Assembly (NCBI GenBank): GCA_000091205.1
Contig: AP006488.2
Direction: 5' to 3' (one strand)
From: Cyanidioschyzon merolae
Lineage: Eukaryota
Length of the DNA stretch: 64,000 nt
The position numbers were made by a program, and so were the translations under genes. Within the stretch, counting starts at the first letter, position 1. Every line of letters begins with the position of its first letter. The notes below the pieces were generated by a model. It did not search any database, was not told where the DNA came from, and saw only the letters and a list, made by a program, of their open reading frames with translations. Positions 15,722 to 63,253 of the stretch are shown piece after piece.

Positions 15722-16042
15722 TCACAACATACCAAGCCTTTTGCCTTCGATTGCAACGTCGTTTTGCGCTCGTGCACCTCCCCGTATCCCTTCTGTTGCG
15801 TATGTGTCTGTTTCACCAGCCGCTCCTCTACTAGCTTTGAGCACGTGCCCGTGTTCGTTAGGTGCGAATGTCATGAAGCCTTTATCAATGGGTATTCTTC
15901 GGACCCGGTTCTTGCGCTCGTAGTACGCGTTCACCCGAGGAGCAAAAGAGTAGCGTCTGTGCCCGACAGCTGCTCCAGCACTATTGGCGAGCACCAAGTG
16001 ATATGGCCTGCCGGTCACTTCCTTTCCCATCTCATTGAACAT
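15722..16042 (-). CDS. Possible 3' exon of a ribosomal protein L21e-like gene. The multi-exon structure is unresolved and the upstream exon was not found.
   Basis: GKEVTGRPYHLVLANSAGAAV...RVNAYYERKNRV resembles RPL21e [20 protein letters not shown]...RINVRIEHIKHS. An in-frame TAG 5 codons upstream of the ATG suggests an AG acceptor. The match is weak. Confidence 0.25.
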   Translation of the reverse strand: MFNEMGKEVTGRPYHLVLANSAGAAVGHRRYSFAPRVNAYYERKNRVRRIPIDKGFMTFAPNEHGHVLKASRGAAGETDTYATEGIRGGARAQNDVAIEGKRLGML

Positions 16043-32377: not shown

Positions 32378-32545
32378 ACGCATGCGGTACCGTTGTCAAA
32401 ATTTAAAACGGTAACGAATGTCGGCTCAACTTCCCGTGAGGAGTGCCGCTGCGTGTGGGTACGCTGTCATTCCAGGGGTAGAGAACCTGTTGCAAGCGGA
32501 CGAAACCAGCGCGGTTGCCTCAAATGCTTACCTCGCTTTTTTTCG

Positions 32546-34798
32546 GTTATACTCAAAGCACTGAATTTTGGAACAGCTGTGCTGGCTCACCTTTTATGTT
32601 TTTGTTTGTCTTTCTCTCAGGTCCCTCATAAAAGCAATCCATCCTTTGGGTGCGAGAACGCTCGCGGAAACACCAAAGGCCCTCACTGCCAGCTTGCGAG
32701 CACAACGGCTTCAGTTCTACGAGTGAGTCACTCAGTGGGTTCATCAAGCGAATGAGCTACACGTCGCCTGGCCCTGATCCTGGGGCTCGGGAGCCCAAAA
32801 CAGAACTTATCCAGCGCTACCCCAACGATTGCCTCTTCTTCAGCGCATTCCACTCCATGCGTACGCTGACAATGACTCCAAAACATGCCGCAGGATGTCG
32901 GGTTTCGACACCCTTCATACGAATGGTGATGAAGAGTCACCGATGGAATACGCAGAAGCACGCGGCTATGGGAGGCCTTTGCGCGTCGCATACCTGGTCA
33001 TCGATTCCGTATGGAAACACGAGCTCGTATTCCGCGGGCAACGGACGTTTGCCGCTCTCGATGAGACACGTCCAGCTACGGACGCTCGACATGTGGCTAG
33101 GTACGCCACGAAGGGCATATTGCCGTCCTACACGACGACACAAGCGAGCATGAAGCCACCATGTGCTCCAGTGGCGACCACATCCCGCAGTTGCCACCGA
33201 GCCGCCAAACAGACATGTCCCTTCGACACACCTGATCGTTCGTCGACGCACTTTTGGCTTCTTGGTCCCACTCTCATCTGCCGCGATCTCAGAAGAGATC
33301 GCTGTCCAGTACGCCGTAGGTGCCATCGAGTACACACGCGAGGGCGGCGTTGAGCGGCTCGGCGATCCTGCATACTGGTTCAGGTTCAGAGCAGTCATAG
33401 GCCCCTTGTCGGTTGTCAACCGCCATACAAGCGCTCGCGGATCTATAGACGACGAGTCGTTCGCATCCGTGGACCCGAAAGCCGCAGAACGCCTTCAGAG
33501 CTCGCGCAGCTTCGTTCCTGGCGGATGCTCGCGCAGCTTCTCTAGCTTTGGTGCACCTCGTCCAGCAGCAGCTGTTCAGAGCAGCTGCGCATGCAGAGGA
33601 GCCAGCTGTGCGCATTCCTCGGGGCGTGCTCGAGCGAGCCTTTCCGAGGCACAGTACAGCTGATGCTCTGCACAGAGGATACGATACGGCGTGCTCGTGA
33701 ACTAGCGGAATTGCAAACAAACACATAAACACACTTACTCACATACACATAAACACAAACACACGTTCTAGCGTACCTTGACCTGCACGCTACCGCATCA
33801 GCGAACGCAAGTGCTACAGTATAGGTCCCTGAAGGAATCGAATGAGCACCACTATCCTAGAGCAGCTGCAGTTCCGCGCTGAGCGCTCCATGAGGCGCAC
33901 GCTTTTGATGCCGCATCCTACACTCAGTGGCCGAGAAAAGCGTGACTGATGCAGCGGATTCATGGCGCGTCGATAGAGCTAAACTGCGGAATAGTGGCGG
34001 AGACTGCAGTGGCAGCGGACTCGGAAGCGCTGCCCCAACGCCAGCCAGAGTCGCCCTCGCACCGAGCCAACAAGCTGGCTTTCGCTAGCGCGTTCCGCGA
34101 GTCGGAGAACAAAGTGGCCGATCAACTGCGTCGTTTGGAGGGAGCGTACGGCGTGGAGCACGCTACAGCGCACAGGCGCTTCTCTCCATTTCGCTTGACA
34201 CGAGCGTACGTCGAGTGCAGCGATCGGCTCTGCAGGACGCTCACCGACGCGTTCAGCACACCGTACGCACAGCACGAGCACGAGCACGAGCACGAACTCA
34301 CAACGAAACAGGTAGCGTGGACGAGTGTGAAGCAGTGCCGGACGCTCTAGACGGTGTACGGCAAGCTTGCCGGACGTCCGACGGCGATGCAACTGGACGC
34401 GGCAGGCTCTCTGGGGCGTGACCCCACCCCCCCGGCAGCGACGTACTGTAGGGCTCTCACTCTCCCCGAAACTCGAACGCCAGGCTCAGCGTCTGGAAAT
34501 ATGTCGGGCGTGTGGAGCGTCCAGCGAGTTTGTGCCGAACGAGTTCGCCAACGAATCCACGAGGTCTCAGTGTGGGCGTTGCGGTGAAACGCGACAGACT
34601 ACCGATGCAGCACTATCAGAGGCGAGTTGCCAGGAGAGCGTGTCCAACGGGTTTCCACCTGGAGTTAGACACCGAAATGGTACGTTTCAGGAAACCAGCG
34701 AGTTTGGTGTGTCGTTTATATACACCGGGATCGGTTCTTCTTCGCGGATACTGAACGATAATGGTTTTCAGCTATTCGATGCTAATGAGTACTGGCGT
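32546..34798 (+). repeat. R2 repeat copy 1 (about 2.25 kb, GC-rich, non-coding). Termini are GGTTATACTCAAAG... and ...GATGCTAATGAGTA.
   Basis: Collinear with 39879-42145 and 46168-48423; the ORF track repeats identical ORF sets. Contains a CA-rich low-complexity tract near 33715-33765 and a (CACGAG)n microsatellite. Confidence 0.85.
34272..34296. repeat. (CACGAG)n hexanucleotide microsatellite, about 4 units, inside R2 copy 1
   Basis: Direct reading: cacgagcacgagcacgagcacgaac. The unit count differs among the three R2 copies (4, 7 and 5). Confidence 0.8.
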
Positions 34799-39878: not shown

Positions 39879-41605
39879 GGGTTATAATCAAAGCACTGAA
39901 TTTTGGAACAGCTGTGCTGGCTCACCTTTTATGTTTTTGTTTGTCTTTCTCTCAGGTCCCTCATAAAAGCAATCCATCCTTTGGGTGCGAGAACGCTCGC
40001 GGAAACACCAAAGGCCCTCACTGCCAGCTTGCGAGCATAACGGCTTCAGTTCTACGAGTGAGTCACTCTGTGGGTTTACCAAGCGAATGAGCTGCACGTC
40101 GCCTGGCCCTGATCCTGGGGCTCGGGAGCCCAAAACAGAACTTATCCAGCGCTACCCCAACGATTGCCTCTTCTTCTGCGCATTCCACTCCATGCGTACG
40201 CTGACAATGACTCCAAAACATGCCGCAGGGTGTCGAGTTTCCACACCCTTCATACGAATGGTGATGAAGAGTCACCGATGGAATACGCAGAAGCACGCGG
40301 CTATGGGAGGCCTTTGCGCGTCGCATACCTGGTCATCGATTCCGTATGGAAACACGAGCTCGTATTCCGCGGGCAACGGACGTTTGCCGCTCTCGATGAG
40401 ACACGTCCAGCTACGGACGCTCGACATGTGGCTAGGTACGCCACGAAGGGCATATTGCCGTCCTACACGACGACACAAGCGAGCATGAAGCCACCATGTG
40501 CTCCAATGGCGACCACATCCATCAGTTGCCACCGAGCCGCCAAACAGACATGTCCCTTCGACACACCTGATCGTTCGTCGACGCACTTTTGGCTTCTTGG
40601 TCCCACTCTCATCTGCCGCGATCTCAGAAGAGATCGCTGTCCAGTACGCGGTAGGTGCCATCGAGTACACACGCGAGGGCGGCGTTGAGCGGCTCGGCGA
40701 TCCTGCATACTGGTTCAGGTTCAGAGCAGTCATAGGCCCCTTGTCGGTTGTCAACCGCCATACAAGCGCTCGCGGATCTATAGACGACGAGTCGTTCGCA
40801 TCCGTGGACCCGAAAGCCGCAGAACGCCTTCAGAGCTCGCGCAGCTTCGTTCCCGGCGGATGCTCGCGCAGCTTCTCTAGCTTTGGTGCACCTCGTCCAG
40901 CAGCAGCTGTTCAGAGCAGCTGCGCATGCAGAGGAGCCAGCTGTGCGCATTCCTCGGGGCGTGCTCGAGCGAGCCTTTCCGAGGCACAGTACAGCTGATG
41001 CTCTGCACAGAGGATACGATACGGCGTGCTCGTGAACTAGCGGAATTGCAAACAAACACATAAACACACTTACTCACATACACATAAACACAAACACACG
41101 TTCTAGCGTACCTTGACCTGCACGCTACCGCATCAGCGAACGCAAGTGCTACAGTATAGGTCCCTGAAGGAATCGAATGAGCACCACTATCCTAGAGCAG
41201 CTGCAGTTCCGCGCTGAGCGCTCCATGAGGCGCACGCTTTTGATGCCGCATCCTACACTCAGTGGCCGAGAAAAGCGTGACTGATGCAGCGGATTCATGG
41301 CGCGTCGATAGAGCTAAACTGCGGAATAGTGGCGGAGACTGCAGTGGCAGCGGACTCGGAAGCGCTGCCCCAACGCCAGCCAGAGTCGCTCTCGCACCGA
41401 GCCGACAAGCTGGCTTTCGCTAGCGCGTTCCGTGAGTCGGAGAACAAAGTGGCCGATCAACTGCGTCGTTTGGAGGGAGCGTACGGCGTGGAGCACGCTA
41501 CAGCGCACAGGCGCTTCTCTCCATTTCGCTTGACACGAGCGTACGTCGAGTGCAGTGATCGGCTCTGCAGGACGCTCACCGACGCGTTCAGCACACCGTA
41601 CGCAC

Positions 41606-41648
<43 letters not shown>

Positions 41649-42145
41649 ACTCACAACGAAACAGGTAGCGTGGACGAGTGTGAAGCAGTGCCGGACGCTC
41701 TAGACGGTGTACGGCAAGCTTGCCGGACGTCCGACGGCGATGCAACTGGACGCGGCAGGCTCTCTGGGGCGTGACCCCCACCCCCCCGGCAGCGACGTAC
41801 TGTAGGGCTCTCTCTCTCCCCGAAACTCGAACGCCAGGCTCAGCGTCTGGAAATATGTCGGGCGTGTGGAGCGTCCAGCGAGTTTGTGCCGAACGAGTTC
41901 GCCAACGAATCCACGAGGTCTCAGTGTGGGCGTTGCGGTGAAACGCGACAGACTACCGATGCAGCACTATCAGAGGCGAGTTGCCAGGAGAGCGTGTCCA
42001 ACGGGTTTCCACCTGGAGTTAGACACCGAAATGGTACGTTTCAGGAAACCAGCGAGTTTGGTGTGTCGTTTATATACACCGGGATCGGTTCTTCTTCGCG
42101 GATACTGAACGATAATGGTTTTCAGCTATTCGATGCTAATGAGTA
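39879..42145 (+). repeat. R2 repeat copy 2
   Basis: Collinear with copies 1 and 3. (CACGAG)7 at about 41607-41650 and a poly-C tract ccccc(a)ccccccc at about 41774. Confidence 0.85.
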
Positions 42146-43890
42146 TGAATGGTTTTGGACTGTCTCTTGTGGCGTGAGGAGTATCGAAAAATTATGAACA
42201 TGTCCTCGGAGGCCCACTCGATAAGTTTGTCTGCGATAGGTGTCCACGCCCACGTGGATTTGGCTCAAGAAACCCCAAATATCTTTAATACTGCACCGGC
42301 GGGTATTTTGCACCTGTGATGCAACTTTGCGAGGCCTGCGTTCGGATATGCCCTCTGTGTGGCGTACAAGATCTTCATGTACGCCGGATACGCTGCAATA
42401 TTGACATGGGAGTTTGAGGCTACGTTGCGCTGCGTTCGTGCAGATGTAGATGCATTTGATCTGGATGCGTTGCTTTCGTTGTTTGCGCTGCCAGCTTGAG
42501 CAGCCTCGTCAGTCATAACAGGCAGTGATCCCTCGACATAAAGTGCTTTGGCGTGATTCTGGAACACTTGGTTGACGCGGAACGATCCGTATGCTTGATG
42601 CCGTTTCTCTTAATCAACCAATATTGTAGTCCGGCATTTTCTTTTGCAAATCTGTGCATTTTTGAATCCAAAGAAACGTTCAATGCTGAGCATGGACCGC
42701 ACAGCTGTAGTCGCGCTGCTTCCCCGTCGCGAGAAAGCTTTCGCTCTGCGGGCGCTCATGGGGCACTTCATGTAAGTATGTTTGGGCGGGGTCGCGGGTG
42801 CCCCGCTTCCTAGGCAGCTGTGCCGATGAAGGCACACTTTTTCCATGTTGGAGTCTATTGGAGACCAATAGGCTTGACGCTTTTGCCCGAGCAGTGCGCT
42901 TCATAGCTGGCACGGCGTCGGCTACTCCATAGCCATGAATTGTGGCATGCCAGCGCTTTATCCCTTTGTTCTTCGATGGGATCTCCACCGTCTACGAGTG
43001 AACGTGCGCCAGCAGGAGCCTTTCCGGAGGGAGCAGTCGTTACATGCGCGCAACATCGGACCCAAGCGTTTGGCAGTTCCAATTAGGTGCTGTAAGATAA
43101 GGAATACAATCCATCTCGTTGCTCTCTTTTACTCTAAATCGACCAGACGTTTGTCAGCTGCACCACTTTCATACATGAGTCAGACGGCAGCTGGATTAGT
43201 TGATGTGTCACATGCGATGCCTCCGCCGTCCTGTGAGCACATAAACATCTTCATTGCTTCTGCTTTCGAGTCCAAGCAGGTCCTAGCCTCGCTCAGCAGA
43301 TGCAGGATTAAGGTTTTAGGAATTAACTTCCAAGCTGTTGGAGAATCTGTCGATGGCAATTGAAACTCAAAGAAGTTTGTGGGGTATCCCTCTCTTTCAA
43401 CGGCACGTCAGCATGAGAAATCTTCAAACAGTGAATGCAATGCAGGCGAGAGTGTTCATTACCAGGTTACGCCCGTCTTCGCGAGAGGACTCTCTTTTCT
43501 GGAGAGGCGTTATTGAAACGCATCCTATGCGAGCAGCTCCTCGTTACACTGGGTCGTTCTCATCACAGGCACATAAAATTTTAGATGAGCTCATCCATTC
43601 ATTACGAATCCGTGGAGTACACGCTGAGCACCGTGCGCTCCAGCTGCGGAGAATCACTCGGAATTCAAGTGCAGTGCCTCCCAATTTGCACGATCTGCAC
43701 TCCAAGTCCAACGACTTGCATCGCTTGAATCTGGTTCCCTGTCCAAAGGACCCTGTCTTGCTGGCAGAAGCTGGGTGAATATTACGGACATTGGCGTTTG
43801 GAGCCCTGCCAACTCCAGCTGGTGGAACAGCAGTTTATGTTCTGCAATCCCCGCTTTTCCTTATACCTCCAAGATCCATGGTAAACGTGA

Positions 43891-44154
43891 TCAGTAAAAC
43901 GAACGAAATCCCGCGACCATGGAGGGTAAACTGAAACCTACTGACAGACGCCTCTCAGCCTTTTTCGACGCGCCGCCTGCTATCGGTTTCAGGTTATGCA
44001 GACGAGCCTCGACCCTCAGAGTCTTTCCCAAGAAGCTGGATCGTTTCAGATCCTCGGATCTTATCGTCAACACCGCACATCTTCTGATACTGATGGCGGT
44101 GTTGAAGTCTCGATTCAGAAACTCCTTGCGTGCATTACCGTTGGTTGAACACAC
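43891..44154 (-). pseudogene. Fanzor/TnpB-like 3' fragment (RuvC-III motif) inside the short element on the minus strand
   Basis: FLNRDFNTAISIRRCAVL...LKPIAGGASKKAERRL parallels the master copy FVNRDFNAAINICRCAVL...LEPIIGGRSKKAGRRL. No upstream RuvC-I or RuvC-II is present. Confidence 0.7.
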
Positions 44155-45410
44155 CGATGCAAGAATTGCTAGAACTCATGCCCTCTGCGATATCATAGTC
44201 TTGTCATCATCGCGTCGCGCACACAATTTTTGTCGACTGTCTCCCTTGTTCTTCGTCTTCTTCGTTACGTGCCCTTCTTTGTTCGATTGTCGGCGGGATG
44301 ACGATTTTTCCGTTTGTTTTCGGCAGCTGGCGATGACGGCCCGCCAGGATCTTGGACTTCCATGTCCTTAACGTGCCCTTGGATATTTTATTTTTCCGAA
44401 TGTACTCGCTCCTGTATGCCCTTAGGTGAGGATCTTCCTGGATGGAATCGATTTTGCGGAAGAAGGATGATACGTGCGTCGGTGTCACCGCCCAGAACGC
44501 TACAGCGATTTGCCCTGTGGAGCGATTATTACATTCCATTACAAAAAAACAGTCAGACGATATGGTAGAACAACAAAAAGTTCTATGCAATGAAAAGCGG
44601 ATCTAGCCCAACAAAATGGGCAAACGCTTGGGCGTAACGAGAATGGTGAAATATCACGTTGTCCAGCAGAAGGACGTCGCCAGGCGTCAGCCAAAATTCT
44701 TCAATGATTCAACGCAGGGTGTGGTATTGTGTAAGCGATCTCTATGAGCGAATTTGAGGCTTCAAGATCAAACCATTCCAACTACCAAAGATGATGGTGT
44801 CGTCGTTCTCTTCCAGTTCGATTGTGTAAACAACGGGTGCCCCGTCCGCGAAAAAGACATGTACGCTCCGAGCGTCTCATCCGAAGCAAGTCCGATCGAC
44901 TGGAAAGAACCTGCGGATGTCGGTGTGCTTCATATCGTCCGCTGAGTTCCAGGAATTCTGCAGCTGAGATTTCAGTGGAAAATGGCCGCGCGTGAAATTC
45001 GGCTCTTTACGACTGTATCCCTGTGTTATCAGGACTACGTGAATCAGCTTGTGGGACAGAGAAACGCCTGTGGCGGCTATTACGGCTGCTTTTGCTTTTG
45101 GTAAGATGACCAACGGGTCGTTGTCTACCATTAACCGCAAGCAGTCTTTAAAAGTATCGGTTTTTGTTGGCACGTGGCACAATTGCTTTCTTTCATTGCT
45201 CCTTAAGTATTAGAGTGCTGTTGTATGACTGATCTGTAGGAGGAATACAGTCCTCCTTGCACTATGCAATAGAGAATATATCCGATAGTCAATTCGTCTA
45301 CGATCTGTACATGACTTTGCGTAGTGATTTCGACCGCTTACTAGAAACTGCGAAAATCCAGGCGGAAACACACAGAGGGACAGGAACCCAATGAAGTTGA
45401 AACTCTTTAA
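43943..45410 (-). mobile_element. Short, internally deleted Fanzor-family element, copy 1 (minus orientation)
   Basis: Nucleotide homology to the 56.4-57.8 kb and 61.8-63.25 kb elements along its entire length. It shares the left-end region (aac ttc att ggg ttc ctg tcc ctc tg...) and the right end GGCTGAGAGGCGTCTG. Its left end abuts the prefoldin start codon. Confidence 0.7.
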
Positions 45411-46167: not shown

Positions 46168-48423
46168 TCGGTTATACTCAAAGCACTGAATTTTGGAACA
46201 GCTGTGCTGGCTCACCTTTTATGTTTTTGTTTGTCTTTCTCTCAGGTCCCTCATAAAAGCAATCCATCCTTTGGGTGCGAGAACGCTCGCGGAAACACCA
46301 AAGGCCCTCACTGCCAGCTTGCGAGCATAAGGGCTTCAGTTCTACGAGTGAGTCACTCTGTGGGTTCACCAAGCGAATGAGCTACACGTCGCCTGGCCCT
46401 GATCCTGGGGCTCGGGAGCCCAAAACAGAACTTATCCAGCGCTACCCCAACGATTGCCTCTTCTTCTGCGCATTCCACTCCATGCGTACGCTGACAATGA
46501 CTCCAAAACATGCGGCAGGGTGTCGAGTTTCCACACCCTTCATACGAATGGTGATGAAGAGTCACCGATGGAATACGCAGAAGCACGCGGCTATGGGAGG
46601 CCTTTGCGCGTCGCATACCTGGTCATCGATTCCGTATGGAAACACGAGCTCGTATTCCGCGGGCAACGGACGTTTGCCGCTCTCGATGAGACACGTCCAG
46701 CTACGGACGCTCGACATGTGGCTAGGTACGCCACGAAGGGCATATTGCCGTCCTACACGACGACACAAGCGAGCATGAAGCCACCATGTGCTCCAGTGGC
46801 GACCACATCCCGCAGTTGCCACCGAGCCGCCAAACAGACATGTCCCTTCGACACACCTGATCGTTCGTCGACGCACTTTTGGCTTCTTGGTCCCACTCTC
46901 ATCTGCCGCGATCTCAGAAGAGATCGCTGTCCAGTACGCCGTAGGTGCCATCGAGTACACACGCGAGGGCGGCGTTGAGCGGCTCGGCGATCCTGCATAC
47001 TGGTTCAGGTTCAGAGCAGTCAAAGGCCCCTTGTCGGTTGTCAACCGCCATACAAGCGCTCGCGGATCTATAGACGACGAGTCGTTCGCATCCGTGGACC
47101 CGAAAGCCGCAGAACGCCTTCAGAGCTCGCGCAGCTTCGTTCCCGGCGGATGCTCGCGCAGCTTCTCTAGCTTTGGTGCACCTCGTCCAGCAGCAGCTGT
47201 TCAGAGCAGCTGCGCATGCAGAGGAGCCAGCTGTGCGCATTCCTCGGGGCGTGCTCGAGCGAGCCTTTCCGAGGCACAGTACAGCTGATGCTCTGCACAG
47301 AGGATGCGATACGGCGTGCTCGTGAACTAGCGGAATTGCAAACAAACACATAAACACGCTTACTCACATACACATAAACACAAACACACATTCTAGCGTA
47401 CCTTGACCTGCACGCTACCGCATCAGCGAACGCAAGTGCTACAGTATAGGTCCCTGAAGGAATCGAATGAGCACCACTATCCTCGAGCAGCTGCAGTTCC
47501 GCGCTGAGCGCTCCATGAGGCGCACGCTTTTGATGCCGCATCCTACACTCAGTGGCCGAGAAAAGCGTGACTGATGCAGCGGATTCATGGCGCGTCGATA
47601 GAGCTAAACTGCGGAATAGTGGCGGAGACTGCACTGGCAGCGGACTCGGAAGCGCTGCCCCAACGCCAGCCAGAGTCGCCCTCGCACCGAGCCGACAAGC
47701 TGGCTTTCGCTAGCGCGTTCCGTGAGTCGGAGAACAAAGTGGCCGATCAACTGCGTCGTTTGGAGGGAGCGTACGGCGTGGAGCACGCTACAGCGCACAG
47801 GCGCTTCTCTCCATTTCGCTTGACACGAGCGTACGTCGAGTGCAGTGATCGGCTCTGCAGGACGCTCACCGACGCGTTCAGCACACCGTACGCACAGCGC
47901 GAGCACGAGCACGAGCACGAGCACGAACTCACAACGAAACAGGTAGCGTGGACGAGTGTGAAGCAGTGCCGGACGCTCTAGACGGTGTACGGCAAGCTTG
48001 CCGGACGTCCGACGGCGATGCAACTGGACGCGGCAGGCTCTCTGGGGCGTGACCCCCACCCCCCCGGCAGCGACGTACTGTAGGGCTCTCACTCTCCCCG
48101 AAACTCGAACGCCAGGCTCAGCGTCTGGAAATATGTCGGGCGTGTGGAGCGTCCAGCGAGTTTGTGCCGAACGAGTTCGCCAACGAATCCACGAGGTCTC
48201 AGTGTGGGCGTTGCGGTGAAACGCGACAGACTACCGATGCAGCACTATCAGAGGCGAGTTGCCAGGAGAGCGAGTCCAACGGGTTTCCGCCTGGAGTTAG
48301 ACACCGAAATGGTACGTTTCAGGAAACCAGCGAGTTTGGTGTGTCGTTTATATACACCGGGATCGGTTCTTCTTCGCGGATACTGAACGATAATGGTTTT
48401 CAGCTATTCGATGCTAATGAGTA
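46168..48423 (+). repeat. R2 repeat copy 3
   Basis: Collinear with copies 1 and 2. (CACGAG)5 at about 47899-47926. Confidence 0.85.
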
Positions 48424-48440
48424 CAGCCTCCGTCACTCTT

Positions 48441-49472: not shown

Positions 49473-52269
49473 TTGTTTGGAGGTACACAGAGCACTTCAC
49501 GTTATCACACAGTTGTTCCCCAGGCAGGGGGTTCACCAGATCACAACGGATTCGCGAAGCAGCATCCACGCTCGAATCGGGAGCTCCGTGCGCCCTCGCC
49601 TGGGGCGAAGGCGCTCCCTGGGCTTTCTCTGACAAGCGAAGCTGACTCCGTGCCGGAACACCGGCCGGCAATGGGGTTGCCTCTGGGTGCCTGTGTCCCT
49701 GTGTGCATAGGATTCTGGAAGGAAAAAAACTTCGACTCTGGGGCGTACGCTCTCCTTGGCCAGAGAAGGTTTGGAAGCGGGGGCCTCTGATGTCGTCCTT
49801 ATCAGCTAGGTGGGAAATCTTTCGAAAATCGATTTGTCTATGAGCATCGATGTTCGTACTGAATCATGCCCATGTCAGACGGAAATGGAATAAGTCTCGC
49901 CTGGCTAGCTCGGACGTACACACTAACGTTTGTATCTCTTCCCACTGCCTTCAATACCAGACGTCGTGAGTTTTTTTCTGTGATTGCGTTCTTTTCCTCG
50001 CTCTTATTCCCTGTTTAGAACACGCCAGTCTCTCTTGGCCAACAAGATCCGTTCTTAGTAGTCGATGTATGTTGATGACGGCTTCAGAGTTCCGATTATT
50101 TCTCTTTCGGCAGCTGCCGACGCGCTGCATGCACAGATGATAGATATGAGTCACGATTCGCTTACAAGATTCATATTATTTTAATGTAGCCTCGAAGCGC
50201 CCTTCGCAGCGGTGACACTTGACCATGGTCAGGTTTTCACATATGCCTACCACCTCACCTACTCGTTCAAGGGCCGCCCTACGCCCTGTAAACGCATACT
50301 CTGTTGCTCGGCTCACGTCCTTGGCTGTTACAGAAGGCTCCGATCGATAACCCGCTCCGATTACGGACCCGGTGCCATACCCTGTGATCAGGGGCTTCAT
50401 CCGCGCGATCCCCTCGGCGGGAACGCTCTCCGCTGCACGTACTCCCTGTTCTGTGCTATAGAGGATTTGTGGAATGCCACGTTGTCCATGATGAAACAAG
50501 TCCCGAAACGAAGGTCGACGCTACAGACCAGATCCAGGAATTTCGATCTGTATATGCTGCTTTCGTGCAAACCGCTGTCGCACATTCCATTAAAAACGAT
50601 TGCTCCGATGGTTAAATTCCGAGTCCGAGACAGGTTCCCATACAAAACAAAGAGTCAGGAACCTTTCGGAGCGTACCCGTTGAGACGCATCACGCTGCTG
50701 TCGACTGCCGTTTCGTCGCTGGCGAAAGGACTGGAGGATTTGTCTTTCCAGTGGACTTGATGACATGTCTTGGCAAGTTCAATGAATACTCAGCATGAGC
50801 TTGTGCACAAGCCATCAGCGGGCATTGTATTATTCCCCCGTCAATGCAGCTGGCAAATTCGCTTCGCCTACTGGTCGCCTTGAAATAGGAAAACCGAAGC
50901 TTGAAGAATGCGTGGTTTGAACGCGTCGTTCGTTGGAGAAGGAGCACTGCGGAGGCCTCTAAGTATGAATGGCATGATGGAATCGGCTGTTTGTCAACTG
51001 CCGCTCATGGTTGTCGAGAAGCATCCCAATTCTCGTGATGTAACAAATTTCAGCGATAGCGAATCGAAGGATCCACAACAGAAAGACGACCGAGAATCCT
51101 AAAACTACACAAGAATCCCTTAGCTCCTACTTCTGCATCTTAAGTGTAGAGGCTGTACGCCTGGAAGAAAGTTCGGAAAAATCTATAGGCAGGAGTATAG
51201 CAAATGGTTCTACTCCTTTTGTTAATCTGATACGGGCTCGGTCCCGACGCACGTTCACGAACGTTGCAGCATTCTCAAGCAGTGCTGCCTTGCGGAACGC
51301 GTGTAGCACGTATTGCCGCTCAATTCCATAAAAAACATAATTGTCTTATTTATGTAGGCGTGTTTTGCCTTGTCCAGAATGACGCACTTGCACGCTGTTT
51401 GCCAACGTGGACAAAGATCGATTTGGACGTGCACGCTATCCAGCGGTCTTTGGAGCTTCGCGCACTGTTTCGGGGGTTTTTCTCAATGACAAAACGTTTA
51501 CATTTACCATGGATTTCAGATTGCGGGATGCATCATGGCTTTTAGGTTAGCATCCATCATGAAGCACCTACCACCAAGCTCCATTACCCATACTTCCTCT
51601 CGGATATTCTGGTCGTTTCGCACGCTCCATCGTGTGCCGAGTGCCTGCCGTGAGCACCCGCCATCGCGCTTAGACCGCTGAAGCAGATGCTGCGCGGAGA
51701 CAGAACGGTTTTGCCATACTACTGTGGGCGTCGGCTCGCGGAATCCTGTATCTGATACGCAATCTCGGCGAATTATCATTCTGGGAGCCTGCAAGCTGCG
51801 CAGTCAGAGGCGCTGTTTGCGACAGCGCAAAGCGATGTAGAAGGGTCCACTAGGACCCGGTCGACGCCCCAATGCGGCATACCTTCTACGAGTCCCAGAT
51901 TAAACTGCATTTCGGACGAGTCGCTCAGACCTTGCAGCGGCATATGTCACTTAAGAAACACGTAGCACCAGCCTACCAGACTAGTCCGGCTCGCGGTGCC
52001 TTCTGCCTAGAAGGTAAACTTTAGACAATACGGGAACATTTGTCCCCTTTGAACGTTAATCGTAGAGGAGGAAAAATATATAAAGAGTCGCAGGTGAATC
52101 CAGAGTCTCTGCTTTTTATTCTAAATAGCGCACTCGATACGCGCACATAGGACATCTGACAGTCACCGGATACGACGTCCATGTCGCCGTTGAAGGGAAA
52201 CGCGATCGTGATCAACAGCGTGTTGTACTGCCGGTAAAGTTGGACTTGCGTTAGAGTCATAGCAATGTA

Positions 52270-54704
52270 TAGTTCTTCAATTCAATTTTGTTTCAGCCTT
52301 CAAGTAAGTATATTCAAGTGATTTTTCGCGAGTTCTGGTAGAAGCGTTCCATGAACGTTCTTTTCCAAAAAAATAAAAAAGGAAAGTTATGGAAGAGCAC
52401 GTCGACAATTGTGGAAGCCTGGTGTCGCCGGCTGGCAGAAAAAAACGAAAAACAGAGCCTATCCCGCAGGAACAGGAGAGGACGAAGAAGCGAAGGCAGG
52501 AGGCCCTACGTGGAAGGCTCCAAAAAAGACAACTGTACGACGAGATGGTGGTGAAATCCTGTCTTCGTAAACGTATCAGGGATCCATACAAGGAAAGGTT
52601 GCGAGACGCTATCAGAAACCTTGTCGATTCGTACTCCAAGAAGGATGTAAAGACATCGTCAGGACTAGCGCATTTGGCGAAGGAGATGTACGAAGATGTG
52701 GCGCATATGGAAACAGTCGAGGGTCTGGGCTAGTTCTTCAACATGACCATGATTCGTCGTCTGATGCTTGGTACAGGGGAATCTTCGACGAAAAAAGAGC
52801 TATTGCAAGCCCTCCGCGAAAACTTCGCGGAATTCCACTTCGAGGGTACTCGATACAGGGGTGACCGGGATATTTACACATGCGGGGCGATGAAGTTCAT
52901 CATGAACGTAAAGAACCATTTGACGATGAACCTCGAAAGTTTCATGATGAGCGCCGTGTTTGCGCTATACCTGGGCATCTCTCGCAAAGGAAAATGAGCG
53001 ATTATCAATGGCATCACGAACGATCGCCAGCATGAAAATGAGGTATAATTTGTCGACAAGAGGGCGTCAAAAGAGAGCACGGATGAAGCTTCTGTGATCC
53101 GTGCGGCTATTCAAGAGCACCGTGCAGTCTTAGGGTTGGTGAATCTAGCAGAAAAGATATCAGCGTTGAAAAAAGATAAGGAAAGATACTATCGCCTCGT
53201 CCTGCGCTATTTTGTGTTTCCGGACCGTGAACTCGAACGCAAGGCAGAGATGAAGCTGAGTGAGGAGACAAAAAAAGAGTGGTAGAGACGGAAGGCTTTT
53301 CTAATGGGGAAGCGCTTCAACGTCGTTCCAATGTGCAACATCAAGTCACATTTCGTGACTATCGACTAAAGAATCCTTCACGGCATCATGAAGGAGATGT
53401 GTCCGGAGTTCGATGTTAGCAGGGAGGAGTTCTCCGGTGAAAACCGGGAGACGTACTGGAAGAATATCTTCAGTTTCAAACGTCTGAGAGTGAGCAAGCA
53501 AAAGTTGTTTACTGGGATGATTGAAACCGATGGAGTAGCCTTGTGTATACACTATCGGCGGTTGAAGAGAGATCGTCCAGTTCCCCCCTCGGCGAACCAT
53601 GAAGATGAGAAAGAGGCGGATCTTGCGACGCAGGAGGTAGAGGATAACGACCTCGTCGTTGGCGTGACGAAGGATGAAGATGAGAAGAAGGAGGATCCTG
53701 CGACGCAGGAGATGCAGGATAACGACCTTGTCGTTGGCGCGACGAAGCATGAAGAAAAGAAGTAGGCGTGCCTTGAGACGAAGAAATTGCAGGATAACGA
53801 CTTTGTCGTTGGCGCGGACCCCGGAAACACAAATATCATCACCATCGCAGCACCGAAGCGTGCAGAAGAATGTACTGACGGCAACTTGCGTCCGAAAGAC
53901 ATGCGTCTTTTGAGGTTCTCGAGAGCGAGATACTATCAAGAATCCGGTATAATGAATGCAAGGAAGAAAATCGTTACGTAGAATGCAGGAATGAAGGATC
54001 ACCTGGAAGCTTTGAGCTAGGTGACAAGTCGAGGAGCGGACTTTGAAGCTTTTCGGAAATTCATGGAAGTTCGCATTGCGCATTGGGATGCGCTGTGGGA
54101 GGAGTATACAAAGCCCCGGCGGGCTCGTTTGCGAATGAATTTGTATTGTGGGAAGCAGCGGGCGTTCGCGAACTTTTTCAGTCAGTTGAGTGCCCTCAAA
54201 GAGGATGAAACTCAGCGGCTAGTAGTGGCGTACGGAGCAGGGCGCTAGATGACCCAAAAAGGGACTACGCCAGCTCCAACGACAAGAACATTCAAAGAGT
54301 GTGCACGGCGTTTTGTTACAATACCGATAGATGAGTTCCGAACGTCCTATACACACCATGAACTGGGATGTACACTTCAGCGAGTGGAGATGGAAAAGTG
54401 TCAGCGGAGCCCTGAGGAAATAGCAAAGTACGGACCACTGACGGAAGAGCAAATGGAAAGGAGGGTGAAAGTTCGTGGACTCCTTGCACTAGTAAGTACA
54501 ACGTCTAATGGCAAGAAACGAACGGAGTTTGTGAACCGTGACTTTAATGCCGCTATCAATATATGCAGATGTGCGGTGCTGGAGAGTAGACCTCCAAGGT
54601 CGACAAGAGTGAACTTTGTTGGACAACCCGTCAAAGTCGAACTATATGAGAATAAATTGGAACCAATAATAGGTGGCCGGTCCAAAAAGGCTGGGAGGCG
54701 TCTG
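52270..54704 (+). mobile_element. Fanzor-bearing transposon, master copy of about 2.4 kb
   Basis: Its left end (ttcaattcaattttgtttcagcc) resembles the left ends of the three short elements (ttcaacttgattttgtttcatcc and similar). Its right end ...GGCTGGGAGGCGTCTG is the exact point where all four copies lose homology. Confidence 0.7.
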
Positions 54705-54842
54705 CACATCAGCTGGAGAGTTCTTCTCCAGGGCCCCGGTCGCCACTACTGTACACTGCTGCCGGTAGCAACAAGTAGCAAAAGTTCAACCGACGAGTCC
54801 ACGGATGGATACTCGGCCAAAAGGTTCAGGTCACCGTTTTAG
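52389..54842 (+). pseudogene. Fanzor/TnpB-like RNA-guided endonuclease gene. It is an 818-codon single frame with nine in-frame stops (TAG at 52731, 53283, 53763, 53979, 54018 and 54246; TGA at 52995; TAA at 53046 and 53367) and no frameshift.
   Basis: All seven ORF-track pieces start at coordinates divisible by 3, checked by hand. KKRK/KKRR NLS-like N-terminus, Ruv[18 protein letters not shown]...C ZnF remnant (IDEFRTSYTHHELGC), RuvC-III VNRDFNAAINICRCAVL. The tail after the right end is read from flanking DNA, as in TnpB. Confidence 0.75.
53616..53830 (+). repeat. 3 x 72-bp in-frame tandem duplication inside the Fanzor ORF (the segment just upstream of RuvC-I)
   Basis: [22 protein letters not shown] / [21 protein letters not shown] / (TAG)[20 protein letters not shown]. 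Only the third unit keeps the GADPG catalytic motif. Confidence 0.75.
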
Positions 54843-56369: not shown

Positions 56370-57775
56370 GATCTTATAATCTTTTAACTTGTTTCTGGTC
56401 CACTCCCTCTGAGTCCAGTCGAATGCGTTCTCGCGGTGAAGAGCAAGCGACCGAAATCACTCTAGGATGTACGTTATAGATCGGAGACGAATTGCTTACG
56501 GGATATGTATGCTTTACTGAGTAGTGCAAGGGGGACAGCACCCCCCGCCCTGCGGCTCATTCGTATCGCAGTTCTCAGATGGTCGGGGGTCATTGAAAGA
56601 AACAAGTAGATGCTCTCAGCGCCAAGAGCTGATACTCTCCAAAGAGCTCTCGGTCTATGGTAGAAAACGACCCATTGATTAGCTTACGGAACGCAGAAGC
56701 GACGATAGTAGTCGCTGTGGGCGTCTCTGTTTCTCAACAGCTTGTTCAATGGTCCTGAAAACACCGGGATACAGTAGCAAAAAACTTTCCACTTCAGTCA
56801 CGACAATATTCCACGGCATTCGCTACTACAATCGAATTCCTGTAACGTCGCGATCTGTATGAAGCACAGGACGTTGATTTGTATTTTCAGCCGATGGGAC
56901 TTCCGTCGGACGAGAAGGTCGTGGGAAATATGGCCATTCGCGGAGCAGGGAGCTCGTTGTATTTAACATCGAATCTGGGGAGAAAGATGACATCATTATC
57001 TGTTCTGATTGCAATGGATTCATTCGACGGCGTCATTTCCACTCGCAGAGCAGGCGCATACAACAGCACCAATCACTTCGTCGAACCACTGAAGACTTTT
57101 TCCCTGAAGTCTGGCGAAGACCCTCTGCTGCACAACGTTGTAATTCACCATTCCGGTTGCGTTCGAGCTTTTGCTGATTCAATCGGGCTAGAGCTGCGTT
57201 TCATTCCATTGTACGCAACGTTGTTTTACCCCATCAAAGGACTGTTTTCTATTGTGAATCGTAATGATCGCTCCACTAGGCGAATCGCTGAAGCGTTCGA
57301 CACACGGTGACACAACGGGGCACATTTCGTCTTTCTTCAGCACGTCCTTCTCCCTCCGGGGAGGTCTCCACCCATGGGTATACACAAGTAGGTTCATTTA
57401 AAAAAATAAAAAATCCAAGGGAGAGTCATGGGCATGGAAGTCGAGGATCCTTGAGGAGCTTTGTTGCCGGCTTCGAAAAAACAAGGAACAAAAATCCTCT
57501 TCTCGCCAACCATCGAGAGAAGAAGAACAAGTGAAGAAGAGGAAGAAGAGGGAGACAGGCAAGAAAATGTGTTTGCTCGACCGTACGACAACGAGATTTC
57601 AGTGGCAGAGAGGGTATGCGTTCTAGGAATCCTCGCATTGATGAGTTCCACCAGCTGCAGTAACCGAGGAATTGACGAGATACGATTTTGTGGAGCAGCC
57701 TCTCAGGCACGAGGTGTGCCTTGATAACCTGGAACCGATAGCGGGCTGCTAGTCAAAGAGGGCTGGGAGGCGTCC
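56370..57775 (+). mobile_element. Short, internally deleted Fanzor-family element, copy 2
   Basis: Collinear at about 75-80% identity with 61800-63253 and with the reverse complement of 43943-45410. Its right end is GGCTGGGAGGCGTCCG. The RuvC-III segment is deleted; remnants are SPTIERRRTSEEEEEEGDRQ and LEPIAGC*SKRAGRR. Confidence 0.7.
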
Positions 57776-58586
57776 GTGACTGGGATTATAAATGCGCTCT
57801 ATTGTTGCGAAACGTTTTCGTGTCACTGACGATACAAGAAATTCGCAATTTCCAGTGCTTCGATGACTGCGTTGTGTATTTGGCAAGCTGCTGCTTGTCA
57901 GTTCCACGCGTTTACTTCTGAAGCGATCGTTGCGTCAGCTGCGAATCCCGTTGAACACATTTTTTGTGCTGCTGAGAACATGTCGCTCCTAAAAAGGAAA
58001 CTTGTTTTCGTTCTTGAGGAACTCCGAACCCAGCGGAGCCAAAAGTTTCCTACCGCCATTCATGTCGAATAAGCCTAAAAAACAGACGACTTCGGTACGG
58101 GTGCCAAGGAGCGGATACCCTTACCGATTTGATCAGACTCGACTACCTGACGCATACGTCGAAGAATGCAGTCAGCCTGCACAGTTCAACTCGGGGACGG
58201 CGAAGGGTTCCGAGGCGTCAGCGCCTCTCCATCGGTTAGCACACAACAGGGGACCTCTCTATCAATTCCAGCATTTATGAGCGATCTCAGAATCAGCGCA
58301 TCAATTCCATTTCGAGACTGAGCGAGAGCGGCAGTAAACCGTTCTTGAGTCGCCCCATTTCGCCAAAATCGCATGCTTGCGCATGCGCGCGAAGCCCTGA
58401 AAAGACAGTACCGAAACTCACGCTCGTCTGTTCCATTGGGCCGTATGAACACGTTATTGAGAAACCGCTAGATAGCAGGATTTTCTGCACCATAAAGCAA
58501 AACAAGTTTTTTCATTAAATAGCCAGTACGCTCACTCGTTCTACGGGTCACTGCGTAGCGCCTGCCCCCGGCGATGCACGGGTGCC

Positions 58587-61799: not shown

Positions 61800-63253
61800 T
61801 GAACCTAATCTTGTGTTTCAACTTGATTTTGTTTCATCCGCACTGTGGTGTATAGAAGGAGACAGAAACCACGATGCAATGTATCGCATATATTGTAGAC
61901 GAATGCCTGTGGGATATACTCTGTACTGAACAGTACAGGGAGGACTGCATTCCTCCTTCAGGTCAGTCATGCCGTCGTACGCAGATGGTTGCGGAACACT
62001 GCAAGAACAACGTATATGCGGTCTGCGCTAAAAACCCCATATTTTAGAAGACTTCTTGCCGTCAATGAAAGGAACCGAACCGTTGATCACCGTACGGAAC
62101 GCAGAAGCGACGAAAGTAGTCGCCACGGGCATCTCTTTTTCTCAACAGCTTGTTCGAGTCGTCCGGAAAACACTGGGATACGGTCGCGAAAAATGTTCTA
62201 GTCGAATCACGAACACTTTCTACCAAAATAGCGACGACAGCGTTCATAGAACGTCACAATCCGTGTAAAGCCGAGGGAGGTCGGTTTGTATCTTCAGTCG
62301 ATGAGACTTTATTCTGACGAAACCGTCGAAGCGTACAGGGGTATTCGAGGTGAAGGATCCCGTTGTACGTACGCTTGAACTCGAATAGAACGAGGACATT
62401 ATCTGTTCTAGCTTTAGTGGATATGTTTGGTGGCCTCAGTTTCGCTCGTAGAGAAGGCGCATAGAATAGCACCAATTTTGCCGAATCATTGAAGGCTTTT
62501 CCCCAGACGTCTGGCGACTTCCTTTAGCTGGACAACATGGCATTTCCCCCTTTCGGTTACGTTCAAGCTTTTGCACATCGTATCGGGCTAGAGCTGCTTT
62601 TCATTACTTAGTAATTTCCGTTGTTTTACCGCATCGGAGGAGTCTTTTCCATCGTGAATCGTAATGATCGCTCCACTGGGCGAATCGCTGAACCGTTCAG
62701 CACACAGTGAAACAACGGGGCACATGTCGCCTCTCTTCCGCAAGTCCATCTCACTCCAGGAAGGTCCTGACCCAGGAACATAAACAAGTGCGTTCGTTTG
62801 AAGCAACAGAGATCCAAGGGAAAGGTATGGGCGTACAAGTTGAGGATCCTGGTGTACCGTCATTGCCAGGTTCTCCAAAACAACGAAGAAAATCATCTTC
62901 TCGCCGATAATCGAGCGATGGAGAGCAACGCACGACGAAGAGGAGGATGACAATGAGTAAGGCGAGAAGAGGTGTTTACCCCACAGGACGACAACGAGAC
63001 TGTAGTGGCGTATAGGGCACGAGTTCGAGGAATCCCGGCAAAGATGAGTTTCACCATCGCCGGTAAATGCAGGGAATACGTAAATCGAGAATTCAACGCT
63101 GCTATAAGCACCAGACGATGTGCGATGCTGAAGAATAGACCTGAGGCGCTGACATGATCTAATTTTGTAGGGCAGCCTCTCAGGGTCGAAGTGCACAAGG
63201 AGCGGCTGACGCCGATAGCAGGATACCGGTCGAAACAAACTGGGAGGCGTCTG
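61800..63253 (+). mobile_element. Short, internally deleted Fanzor-family element, copy 3. It retains a RuvC-III remnant.
   Basis: Shares the left-end region and the subterminal hairpin with the other copies. The 3' coding remnant is EYVNREFNAAISTRRCAML...NFVGQPLRVEVHKERLTPIAGYRSKQTGRRL. Its right end is GGGAGGCGTCTG at 63242-63253. Confidence 0.7.
62972..63253 (+). pseudogene. Fanzor/TnpB-like 3' fragment (RuvC-III and C-terminal tail) inside short element copy 3
   Basis: VNREFNAAISTRRCAML followed by an in-frame stop, then NFVGQPLRVEVHKERLTPIAGYRSKQTGRRL. Collinear with the master copy 54530-54704. Confidence 0.7.

Follow-up and report, generated by a model that had tools for sequence, protein, structure and literature searches.

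A truncated CMe-1A Fanzor1 copy of Cyanidioschyzon merolae whose nine in-frame stops and unbroken frame are probably the outcome of ordinary pseudogene decay

CMe-1A is the sole Fanzor1 family listed for Cyanidioschyzon merolae (Bao & Jurka 2013, PMC3627910). It was described as a family of about 150 copies of approximately 3 kb, each about 80% identical to the consensus and devoid of TIRs, with a 5' module of about 635 bp in common with a shorter element, TE-N2_CMe (PMC3627910). A C. merolae protein was listed as Fanzor1 by the same authors, who defined the family (PMC3627910). Individual decayed copies are not described in that study, and neither is the terminal palindrome carried by most copies. 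Here, we analysed one locus on chromosome 6 of C. merolae 10D, within a stretch of 64,000 nucleotides of contig AP006488.2 (hereafter the window, from whose first letter all positions are counted). By the published description, this locus is one copy of the already known CMe-1A family: it shares with CMe-1A the host, a size of about 3 kb, the lack of TIRs, a Fanzor1 ORF, the 5' module and a divergence from the consensus in the range of 11-20%. It differs from the described element in that it is non-functional, since it carries nine nonsense codons, has lost its natural stop and is truncated at its 3' terminus. We conclude, with a probability of about 0.87, that the locus is a dead, immobile CMe-1A copy and that its nine stops without any frameshift result from ordinary pseudogene decay.

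The limits of the copy were determined from the coverage of its paralogs. At least 397 relatives were found in hot-spring metagenomes, and all paralog counts given here refer to these metagenome relatives of CMe-1A and not to the roughly 150 copies of the 10D genome itself. Paralog coverage begins at 51476-51490 and ends sharply at 54754-54764, which delimits a transposon copy of about 3.29 kb at 51476-54764 on the forward strand (as are all features below), lacking its 3' terminus. Six ORFs of the window match C. merolae 10D proteins exactly, and this protein look-up placed the copy in an unannotated gap extending from the host gene BAM79506 (ApaG) to the host gene BAM79507. The 5' module (51476-52140) is present in a subset of copies only: homology starts at 51476-51490 in about 20-40 of 80 loci, and only at about 52115-52150 in the remaining ones. 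This module measures about 660 bp and, going by the published description, probably corresponds to the 635 bp of TE-N2_CMe-like 5' sequence from the 2013 study (PMC3627910). The Fanzor1 pseudogene itself lies at 52389-54731 and consists of 780 ancestral codons followed by a mutated natural stop.

A preliminary description of this DNA, made from the sequence alone, had reported nine in-frame stops and no frameshift, and this count was borne out. Frame 1 of 52389-54842 contains exactly nine internal stops (six TAG, two TAA and one TGA) ahead of a terminal TAG at 54840; the remaining two forward frames contain 52 and 33 stops over the same interval. A MAFFT majority consensus of all copies lost the reading frame, and we therefore relied on pairwise alignments to the window copy. 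In 79 such alignments, no indel relative to the family was detected inside the natural ORF; the only gap shared by a majority, a deletion of 2 bp, falls just past the natural stop (about 54735-54740). Moreover, the family consensus matched the window as a single 780-aa HSP in one frame by tblastn.

The gene was also said to be a Fanzor/TnpB-like nuclease with RuvC landmarks and a basic N-terminus. Indeed, the motifs GADPG, DEFRTS and NRDFNAAIN are all found and a profile of the family matches solved Fanzor1 proteins. A profile built from 86 family sequences and compared with PDB sequences retrieved PpFz1 (9CF0, E=1.1e-26), SpuFz1 (8GKH, E=2.7e-21), GtFz1 (9CER, E=2e-15) and no others; a narrow profile of 13 sequences (A1) gave no match to PDB sequences. 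The three catalytic residues are intact and invariant in A1: Asp477 of RuvC-I (GADPG, 53817-53819), which aligns with DPG in PpFz1 and DP in SpuFz1, Glu649 of RuvC-II (DEFRTS, 54333-54335) and Asp718 of RuvC-III (NRDFNAAINI, 54540-54542). The spacing D-X(125-275)-[TS][TS] ... X(5-50)-RD given by Bao & Jurka (2013) is seen in D477, T652-S653 (175 residues on) and R717-D718. Between RuvC-II and RuvC-III the protein reads T-H656-H657-E-L-G-C661-x9-C671, which is not the canonical CxxC...CxxC; H656 and C661 are invariant and C671 nearly so, and the HH-x3-C-x9-C segment could be a degenerate His/Cys site. A Pfam scan of the read-through protein and its close relatives revealed no TnpB domain, only a chance FliL match, and PF07282 (OrfB_Zn_ribbon / Cas12f1-like TNB) was found in neither, only in three distant relatives (P0027-P0029). 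For comparison of folds, we used an AF2 model of an intact relative that is 70% identical to the window protein. Its best seven Foldseek matches in the PDB were all SpuFz, GtFz or PpFz structures, followed by Cas12 (E=7e-9 to 3.5e-4 and probability 1.00 for the Fanzor1 matches, with TM-scores of only 0.24-0.37); model confidence was low (pLDDT 59.8, pTM 0.42), so the model served for ranking the matches alone.

All together, the ancestral protein resembles SpuFz1, PpFz1 and GtFz1 in the profile homology of its REC-like and RuvC parts, in the DPG, DEF/YxTS and NRD motifs, in its basic N-terminus and in the position of its ORF on the 3' side of the transposon. It departs from them in its structural-alignment identity (about 12-14%), in the HH-x3-C-x9-C segment that stands in for the zinc ribbon and in an acidic 25-aa repeat inserted before RuvC-I. 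With bacterial TnpB (IS200/IS605, IS607) and Cas12f-type proteins it shares the RuvC D-E-D core, as well as PF07282 in the distant relatives; unlike them, the C. merolae element resides in a eukaryotic nucleus, lacks a TnpA partner and encodes a far longer N-terminal half. Judging from the homology to characterised Fanzor1 enzymes, the ancestral element would have coded for a TnpB-type, RNA-guided RuvC endonuclease of 780 aa whose N-terminus was basic and NLS-like. With its nine stops, the window copy is unable to encode an active protein.

The 3' end of the gene had been misplaced. The family's natural stop is codon 781 (54729-54731), which reads TAG or TAA in 42 paralogs. All seven orthologous alleles have TAG there, and in 10D only, it has changed to CAG. 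The product of 818 aa ending at 54842 that was originally proposed is thus 37 codons too long: since codon 781 is the natural stop and homology with other copies ends at about 54764, these last codons consist of 3' tail and host DNA. The host DNA so read through (54765-54842) holds the ATG of BAM79507, a transporter gene, at 54805. This start codon lies only 41 bp past the CMe-1A copy. What remains of the conserved 3' non-coding tail (54732-54764) comprises a small hairpin and a CACTACTGTACAC motif, in addition to the 2-bp deletion, and the terminal palindrome and G/T-rich end of most copies are absent. In the small hairpin, one pair covaries (CG versus GC in 13 of 38 sequences), and RNAalifold predicted 14 pairs only over the whole 3'-end alignment, with a weak covariation term. 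The last 127 nt of the consensus fold with z=-2.7 and form a 12-bp terminal hairpin, which the window copy lacks. By homology, the ancestral structured 3' end presumably encoded the scaffold of a guide RNA (omega-RNA); no Rfam match was obtained in the window. The Helitron and IS200/605 classes were also considered owing to the terminal palindrome, and no Helitron-type ends were seen by eye.

Orthologous alleles of the locus were available from hot-spring metagenomes; one ortholog, L012/L083, is 98.6-99% identical over 8-16 kb. At four of the nine stop positions this ortholog has a sense codon, and it has a 1-bp frameshift and a 3-bp insertion of its own. Of the nine stops, four occur in 10D alone, one is polymorphic and two are found in all alleles with coverage of the site. 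In order, the first stop (TAG, 52731-52733) replaces GAG (Glu115) by G>T and is private to 10D, the codon being GAG in the consensus and in the ortholog L012. The second (TGA, 52995-52997), from TGG (Trp203) by G>A, is common to L012, and the same Trp codon is also a stop in three other paralogs. The next three are private to 10D: TAA at 53046-53048, from GAA (Glu220) by G>T, within a tandem CG>AT double substitution at 53045-53046; TAG at 53283-53285, from GAG (Glu299) by G>T; and TAA at 53367-53369, from TCC via TCA (Ser327) by C>A, L012 having TCA and the consensus TCC. The sixth (TAG, 53763-53765), from GAG (Glu459) by G>T, is found in orthologs L083-L086, and the seventh (TAG, 53979-53981), from TGG (Trp531) by G>A, in L083-L089. 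The eighth (TAG, 54018-54020), from GAG (Glu544) by G>T, is the polymorphic one: GAG in L084-L086, TAG in L083 and L087-L089. The ninth (TAG, 54246-54248), from TGG (Trp620) by G>A, is probably among the oldest lesions because every orthologous allele carries it; its Trp codon is also a stop in eight further paralogous loci.

These alleles bear directly on the integrity of the reference. Misassembly was one of the readings first put forward, and the locus would lend itself to it: the element is repetitive and contains an in-frame tandem repeat (53593-53816; TRF period 75, 3.0 copies, 82% matches) that encodes acidic 25-aa units, varies in copy number among paralogs and is where metagenome contigs break. 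We regard misassembly or a sequencing error as very improbable, since independent assemblies from several metagenomes, 98.6-99% identical to 10D, contain this locus in the same frame and with the five older stops, and the four private stops are single-base differences in otherwise collinear sequence. The preliminary description had also aligned the TAG at 53763 with GAG in two 72-bp units of this repeat. The GAG at 53613 and the transversion that it implies stand, but the unit measures 75 bp and occurs 3.0 times, and the codon at 53688 is AAG (GAG in the ortholog).

The same comparison speaks against readthrough of the stops, programmed or by a suppressor tRNA, as a means to keep a functional nuclease at a low level. 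A frame kept over 780 codons and an intact RuvC D/E/D triad are what this explanation would lead one to expect. However, orthologous alleles do not keep the stops: four are missing from one allele, and another is polymorphic among strains; the stops stand for Glu, Trp and Ser and use all three stop types; TAG and TAA are the family's own terminator, and host genes of the window end in TAG, TAA and TGA. In addition, the natural stop and 3' terminus have been lost, the ortholog is frameshifted, and ARAGORN detected no tRNA gene within the window, where Rfam matches are likewise lacking. Readthrough thus appears hardly credible at this locus.

Inference of the ancestral codon at each stop, which had been proposed as a check, gave Glu five times (G>T), Trp three times (G>A) and Ser once (C>A), so that six of the nine stops arose by G:C>T:A transversion. 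This composition does not fit a transition-type hypermutation of repeats, whether RIP-like or driven by a deaminase, as had been suggested. It is true that the element is a repeat and that two stops, at 53979 and 54246, could as TGG>TAG changes reflect C>T at CpA in the complementary strand; but the polarised differences between orthologs amount to 30 transitions and 24 transversions (a ratio of about 1.25), element GC (47-51%) shows no depression relative to the window, and stops across the family derive from varied codons. We therefore give this mechanism next to no likelihood. Nor could a strong TAG bias be upheld: the share of TAG expected from the ancestral codon content is 45-49%, against which six of nine gives a binomial p of about 0.2, and the unique stops of the whole family, which arise from many codon types, number 40 TAG, 39 TAA and 31 TGA. 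The non-significant excess of TAG in the window copy is attributable to ancestral codons that end in G (GAG, TGG).

We next consider whether nine stops and no frameshift is too skewed an outcome for undirected decay. The preliminary description held that indels should outnumber nonsense changes several-fold in a decaying gene, which is not what we observed. Orthologs differ by 5 indels per 154 substitutions over 15.7 kb (about 1 per 31), and the probability that a substitution creates a stop is 0.045 in this Glu/Lys/Trp-rich ORF. With indels about 30 times rarer than substitutions and about 4.5% of the latter creating stops, nonsense changes are expected slightly above frameshifts. Consistent with this, 79 paralogous copies contain 110 nonsense versus 84 uncompensated frameshift events, that is, means of 3.2 stops and 2.3 frameshifts per copy. 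Frameshifts in other copies of the family are therefore of comparable density to stops, the circumstance under which the window copy had been said to be a chance survivor. Stops fall at differing codons in different paralogs. By tblastn, a single frame suffices to align 22 of the 79 copies, of which 10 have at least four stops, with nine in L010 and eight in L007; these two, the closest analogues of the window copy, contain compensated indel pairs.

At the family ratio, the probability of nine stops before the first frameshift in one pre-chosen copy is about 0.57^9 = 0.006 (about 0.005-0.006). Written in window coordinates, the family consensus reads as an intact ORF of 780 aa, to which the window copy is 88.6% identical in nucleotides and 80.9% in amino acids; the pN/pS of 0.44 implies that the 11% divergence is neutral only in part. 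A separate estimate from about 130 neutral substitutions gave p of about 0.01 for nine stops without a frameshift. The 9:0 ratio is hence an unusual tail outcome, yet within reach of a family of about 150 copies.

A process that favours substitutions over indels may nevertheless have acted here. On the 10D branch, 4 nonsense changes were observed among 32 substitutions versus about 1.5 expected. The G:C>T:A class accounts for 10 of these 32 changes versus 1 of 22 on the sister branch, and three tandem doublets occur among the 10D changes (52949-50, 53045-46 and 53273-74). The four private stops, each a G>T or C>A change, all fall inside a hot region, 52304-53803, where substitutions reach 16-21 per 500 bp and are 2-3 times denser than elsewhere in the 15.7 kb (at most 11). 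This density suggests that a local or lineage-specific mutational bias may contribute. The region has a strong purine skew (GC skew +0.17, AT skew +0.16), and no gene-conversion donor for the 10D- or L012-derived alleles was found among 78 paralogs. Local or lineage-specific mutagenesis biased towards substitutions would have raised the ratio of nonsense to indels and made the pattern partly mechanistic rather than purely due to chance; candidate causes are oxidative damage to G, error-prone translesion or repair synthesis, and damage to the purine-rich coding strand in connection with transcription or R-loops. We consider this contribution unlikely. The changes are few (10/32 versus 1/22 gives a Fisher p of about 0.02 by rough estimate), the 30:24 spectrum is mixed and shows neither a single signature nor a strong asymmetry between strands, and such a bias is unnecessary for the five older stops. 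Moreover, in other ortholog-like pairs of the family the ORF is 2-7 times more divergent than its flanks, in a patchy manner, as expected for neutral pseudogenes in a compact, constrained genome. Across the family, the 5' half of the ORF does not evolve faster than the 3' half (divergence 1.1-1.6% in all bins). The broader proposal that Cyanidioschyzon Fanzor1 copies, or the 10D locus, undergo a clustered process yielding substitutions and not indels, with G:C>T:A changes and tandem doubles in the 5' 1.4 kb of the ORF, is more doubtful still. It might stem from a mutagenic defence directed at TEs, or else from a transcribed, purine-skewed region that is prone to R-loops and there suffers oxidative damage or error-prone repair; if true, copies would be inactivated by nonsense with their frame kept.

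Ordinary decay, our preferred reading, proceeded as follows. Once selection was lost on the window copy, stops accumulated stepwise by ordinary point substitution, first at Trp codons (TGG>TAG/TGA) and then at Glu codons (GAG>TAG). The 10D lineage then gained four more nonsense changes and lost the natural stop, and the 3' terminus of the copy is deleted. The lack of a frameshift would be a chance tail (about 0.5% for one copy) of a process in which nonsense changes are slightly commoner than frameshifts.

The finding has little significance beyond annotation: it places an unannotated, decayed CMe-1A/Fanzor1 copy in the gap between BAM79506 and BAM79507. In the C. merolae lineage, a Glu/Lys/Trp-rich pseudogene should gain nonsense changes at least as often as frameshifts, so that many stops with no frameshift are by themselves no evidence of recoding or directed silencing. 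The hot-spring metagenome alleles provide a clean time series of pseudogene decay, and the 780-aa consensus ORF is usable to resurrect a red-algal Fanzor1.

Read in frame 1, the segment 52389-54842 is 818 codons long and is interrupted by nine stops (TAG six times, TAA twice and TGA once), at exactly the positions listed in the preliminary description of this DNA; the remaining two forward frames hold 52 and 33 stops. The Fanzor-like gene sits in an unannotated gap between ApaG (BAM79506; 48441-49472, minus strand) and a phosphate-translocator-like protein (BAM79507; 54805-56088, plus strand). Both were exact protein matches, and six long ORFs of the window match annotated C. merolae 10D proteins exactly and over their full length, including these two, kynureninase BAM79496, CMF131C and CMF147C. 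The host genes terminate in TGA (three), TAA (two) and TAG (one), and neither tRNA genes nor Rfam families were found within the window. Upstream of ApaG, 10D and its ortholog differ by a single substitution across the ~1.3 kb of the unannotated stretch 49473-50750, far less than in the adjacent intergenic DNA; this low divergence suggests an unannotated functional element.

The proposed Fanzor/TnpB-like identity held when the family was compared with Fanzor profiles and structures. A protein search gave 29 relatives at 46-78% identity, nearly all from JGI metagenomes, more distant relatives bearing the Cas12f1-like TNB domain PF07282. An exhaustive profile search extended this to 5,437 relatives, 86 of which were used to build a family profile. 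Against PDB sequences, this profile matched three sequence sets only, all Fanzor1: PpFz1 of Parasitella (E = 1.1e-26), SpuFz1 of Spizellomyces (2.7e-21) and GtFz1 of Guillardia (2e-15). These share with the C. merolae family, in alignment, the RuvC-I (DPG), RuvC-II (DEFxTS) and RuvC-III (NRD) motifs. The same three proteins provided the best seven PDB structure matches of an AF2 model of the intact relative P0001, a low-confidence model (pLDDT 59.8). The RuvC residues D477, E649 and D718 are all intact in the window copy. The family segment lacks the canonical C4 zinc ribbon and has HH-x3-C-x9-C instead.

The transposon family is already known, since CMe-1A is the one Fanzor1 family that Bao and Jurka (2013; PMC3627910) report from C. 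merolae; its roughly 150 copies each match the consensus at about 80% identity. The element was described as about 3 kb long, without TIRs and with TSDs undetermined, sharing its 5' 635 bp with TE-N2_CMe, and as including some intact copies. From 80 related metagenome loci, we place the limits of the window element at about 51476-54764, the BAM79507 ATG lying 41 bp beyond its end. Only a subset of copies has the 5' module (51476 to about 52140, plus strand). An internal tandem repeat has three units of 75 bp each, rather than the 72 bp first reported. Projected onto window coordinates, the copies yield a consensus ORF of 780 codons free of interruptions, with its terminator at codon 781. At this natural stop (54729-54731), 42 copies have TAG or TAA and every orthologous allele has TAG; 10D reads CAG, a stop-loss unique to it among these alleles. 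The ORF to 54842 and its 818-aa product are therefore too long, the last 37 codons running on past the lost stop through the 3' tail and into host DNA. Directly 3' of the natural stop, the window copy also has a 2-bp deletion.

Past the equivalent of 54764, most copies extend into a terminal palindrome followed by about 12 nt of G/T-rich tail. Both are absent from the window copy and its orthologs, so the window copy is 3'-truncated. The palindrome reads TCGTTCGACTTTCGAACGGCG or, alternatively, AACGTTTTTCTTTTGAAAGACGTT, different sequences forming the same hairpin (L001-L081, alignment columns ~240-290). Another small hairpin, with CG/GC covariation, immediately follows the stop codon of CMe-1A, and the 3' ends also share an almost invariant CACTACTGTACAC motif. 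None of these features is mentioned in the description by Bao and Jurka; the palindrome, hairpin and motif could represent an omega-RNA 3' stem, a terminator or a transposition signal.

Judged from consensus and homolog residues, the stops at 52731, 53046, 53283, 53763 and 54018 come from Glu codons (GAG or GAA) by G>T, those at 52995, 53979 and 54246 from Trp (TGG) by G>A, and that at 53367 from Ser (TCA) by C>A. The strong TAG bias initially perceived was not sustained. The ancestral codon content predicts a TAG share of 45-49% among nonsense mutations under any plausible spectrum, from which six of nine does not depart (p ~0.2); family-wide, stops are split into 40 TAG, 39 TAA and 31 TGA. 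The TAG excess is compositional.

The history of the stops is readable in orthologous alleles. A metagenome locus 98.6-99% identical to 10D across 8.4-15.7 kb (L012/L083) has sense codons at 52731, 53046, 53283 and 53367, shares the other five stops, and has two insertions of its own, one of 1 bp at 53296 that shifts the frame and one of 3 bp at 52440. Six further alleles all share TAG 54246 and TAG 53979; TAG 53763 is widespread among them, and position 54018 is polymorphic, three alleles having GAG there instead of TAG. The alleles form a stepwise decay series of a pseudogene, which is incompatible with the functional stop-codon readthrough considered earlier. Misassembly, likewise considered, is incompatible with the agreement of independent assemblies on this locus. 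A further orthologous allele (L082; ENA ERZ27247235 k141_47344) is about 99% identical downstream of ~54216 and only 75% upstream, as if its 5' part derived from another paralog by ectopic gene conversion or recombination, or as an assembly chimera at the repeat. At 53800-54800, alleles from different hot-spring metagenomes (L083-L089) fall into three groups with different variant combinations; these mosaic haplotype blocks suggest recombination among co-occurring Cyanidioschyzon strains.

The absence of frameshifts was confirmed: pairwise alignments and tblastn revealed no indel relative to the family within the 780 codons of the window copy. The argument that this is non-random had assumed that indels outnumber nonsense changes several-fold, a premise contradicted by 154 substitutions against 5 indel events between 10D and its ortholog over 15.7 kb, with 4.5% of random substitutions in the ORF making a stop. 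In 79 paralogous copies we counted 110 distinct nonsense and 84 distinct uncompensated frameshift events (per-copy means 3.2 and 2.3); frameshifts are common in sister copies. Taking p(stop) = 0.57, the chance that nine stops precede any frameshift is ~0.006. Independently, the pN/pS of 0.44 against the consensus implies roughly 130 neutral substitutions and ~4.4 expected frameshifts, giving p ~0.01. This is a tail event for a single pre-chosen copy, but the family numbers about 150 members and its lesion counts are overdispersed: by tblastn, 22 of the 79 copies give a one-frame alignment, 10 of these with at least four in-frame stops, and two single-frame copies with nine (L010) and eight (L007) stops both have compensated indel pairs. 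Before the strain split, five stops and no frameshift accumulated (p ~0.06); the 10D branch added four stops and no indel in 32 substitutions, against ~1.5 stops and ~1 indel expected. The pattern is unremarkable once the lesions are separated by age.

Within the ORF, the A6 run at 53164-53169 (ORF position ~780), retained in the window copy, is a recurrent indel hotspot in paralogs (-1 in seven loci, +1 in five). Codon 738 (54600-54602) is TCG in the window and TAG in 16 paralogous loci of several sub-lineages, and the predicted protein P0013 terminates there. This TAG may mark a subfamily whose C-terminus is naturally shorter, rather than independent lesions; if so, the nonsense count is slightly inflated.

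Substitutions between 10D and the ortholog cluster in 52304-53803 (3.2-4.2%, against at most 2.2% elsewhere), a density two to three times that of any other part of the 15.7 kb, and the last 1.1 kb of the pseudogene diverges by only ~1%. The excess comes from both branches, and no paralog resembled a gene-conversion donor. A modest mutational bias adding to the stop excess would fit the G:C>T:A changes, 10/32 on the 10D branch versus 1/22 on the sister branch, and three tandem double substitutions on the 10D branch (52949-50, 53045-46 and 53273-74). We consider it improbable, however, as other ortholog-like pairs diverge in the same patchy way, with ORF divergence two to seven times that of the flanks. 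The pattern is most simply explained by neutral pseudogene DNA within a compact, constrained genome; the 3' part of the pseudogene may be constrained as the BAM79507 promoter region.

Fanzor debris is unusually abundant in this 64-kb window. Five further remnants similar to the CMe-1A consensus lie at 63014-63253 and 57669-57773 (plus strand) and at 43879-44193, 15565-16384 and 2015-2261 (minus strand). They are more divergent (27-59% amino acid identity) and mostly cover the RuvC-II/III region; one example, ORF 62972-63157, contains YVNREFNAAISTRRC. Two paralogous segments, ~56440-57780 and ~61850-63250, are ~72% identical. In each, a Fanzor-like fragment closely follows a short ORF that weakly matches the DDE_3 transposase domain (PF13358; orthologous ORF at ~56879-57310), and the two segments may be what is left of a Tc1/mariner-type element bearing a Fanzor gene. 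A 2.26-kb repeat (32543-34792, 39880-42145 and 46168-48424, plus strand) is young, because its three copies are 98-99% identical. Each copy is weakly similar to Fanzor residues 592-655 (~32% over 64 aa), and the first 121 bases of metagenome contig Ga0078972_1000969 are identical to the repeat end.

The locus thus appears, by sequence comparison and by its fit to the published description, to be a dead copy of CMe-1A. Its stops arose singly, as Glu, Trp and Ser codons underwent ordinary substitution; the natural stop was lost in 10D only, and the 3' terminus is missing from this copy and its orthologs alike. This nine-stop pseudogene with its frame kept is an ordinary finding.
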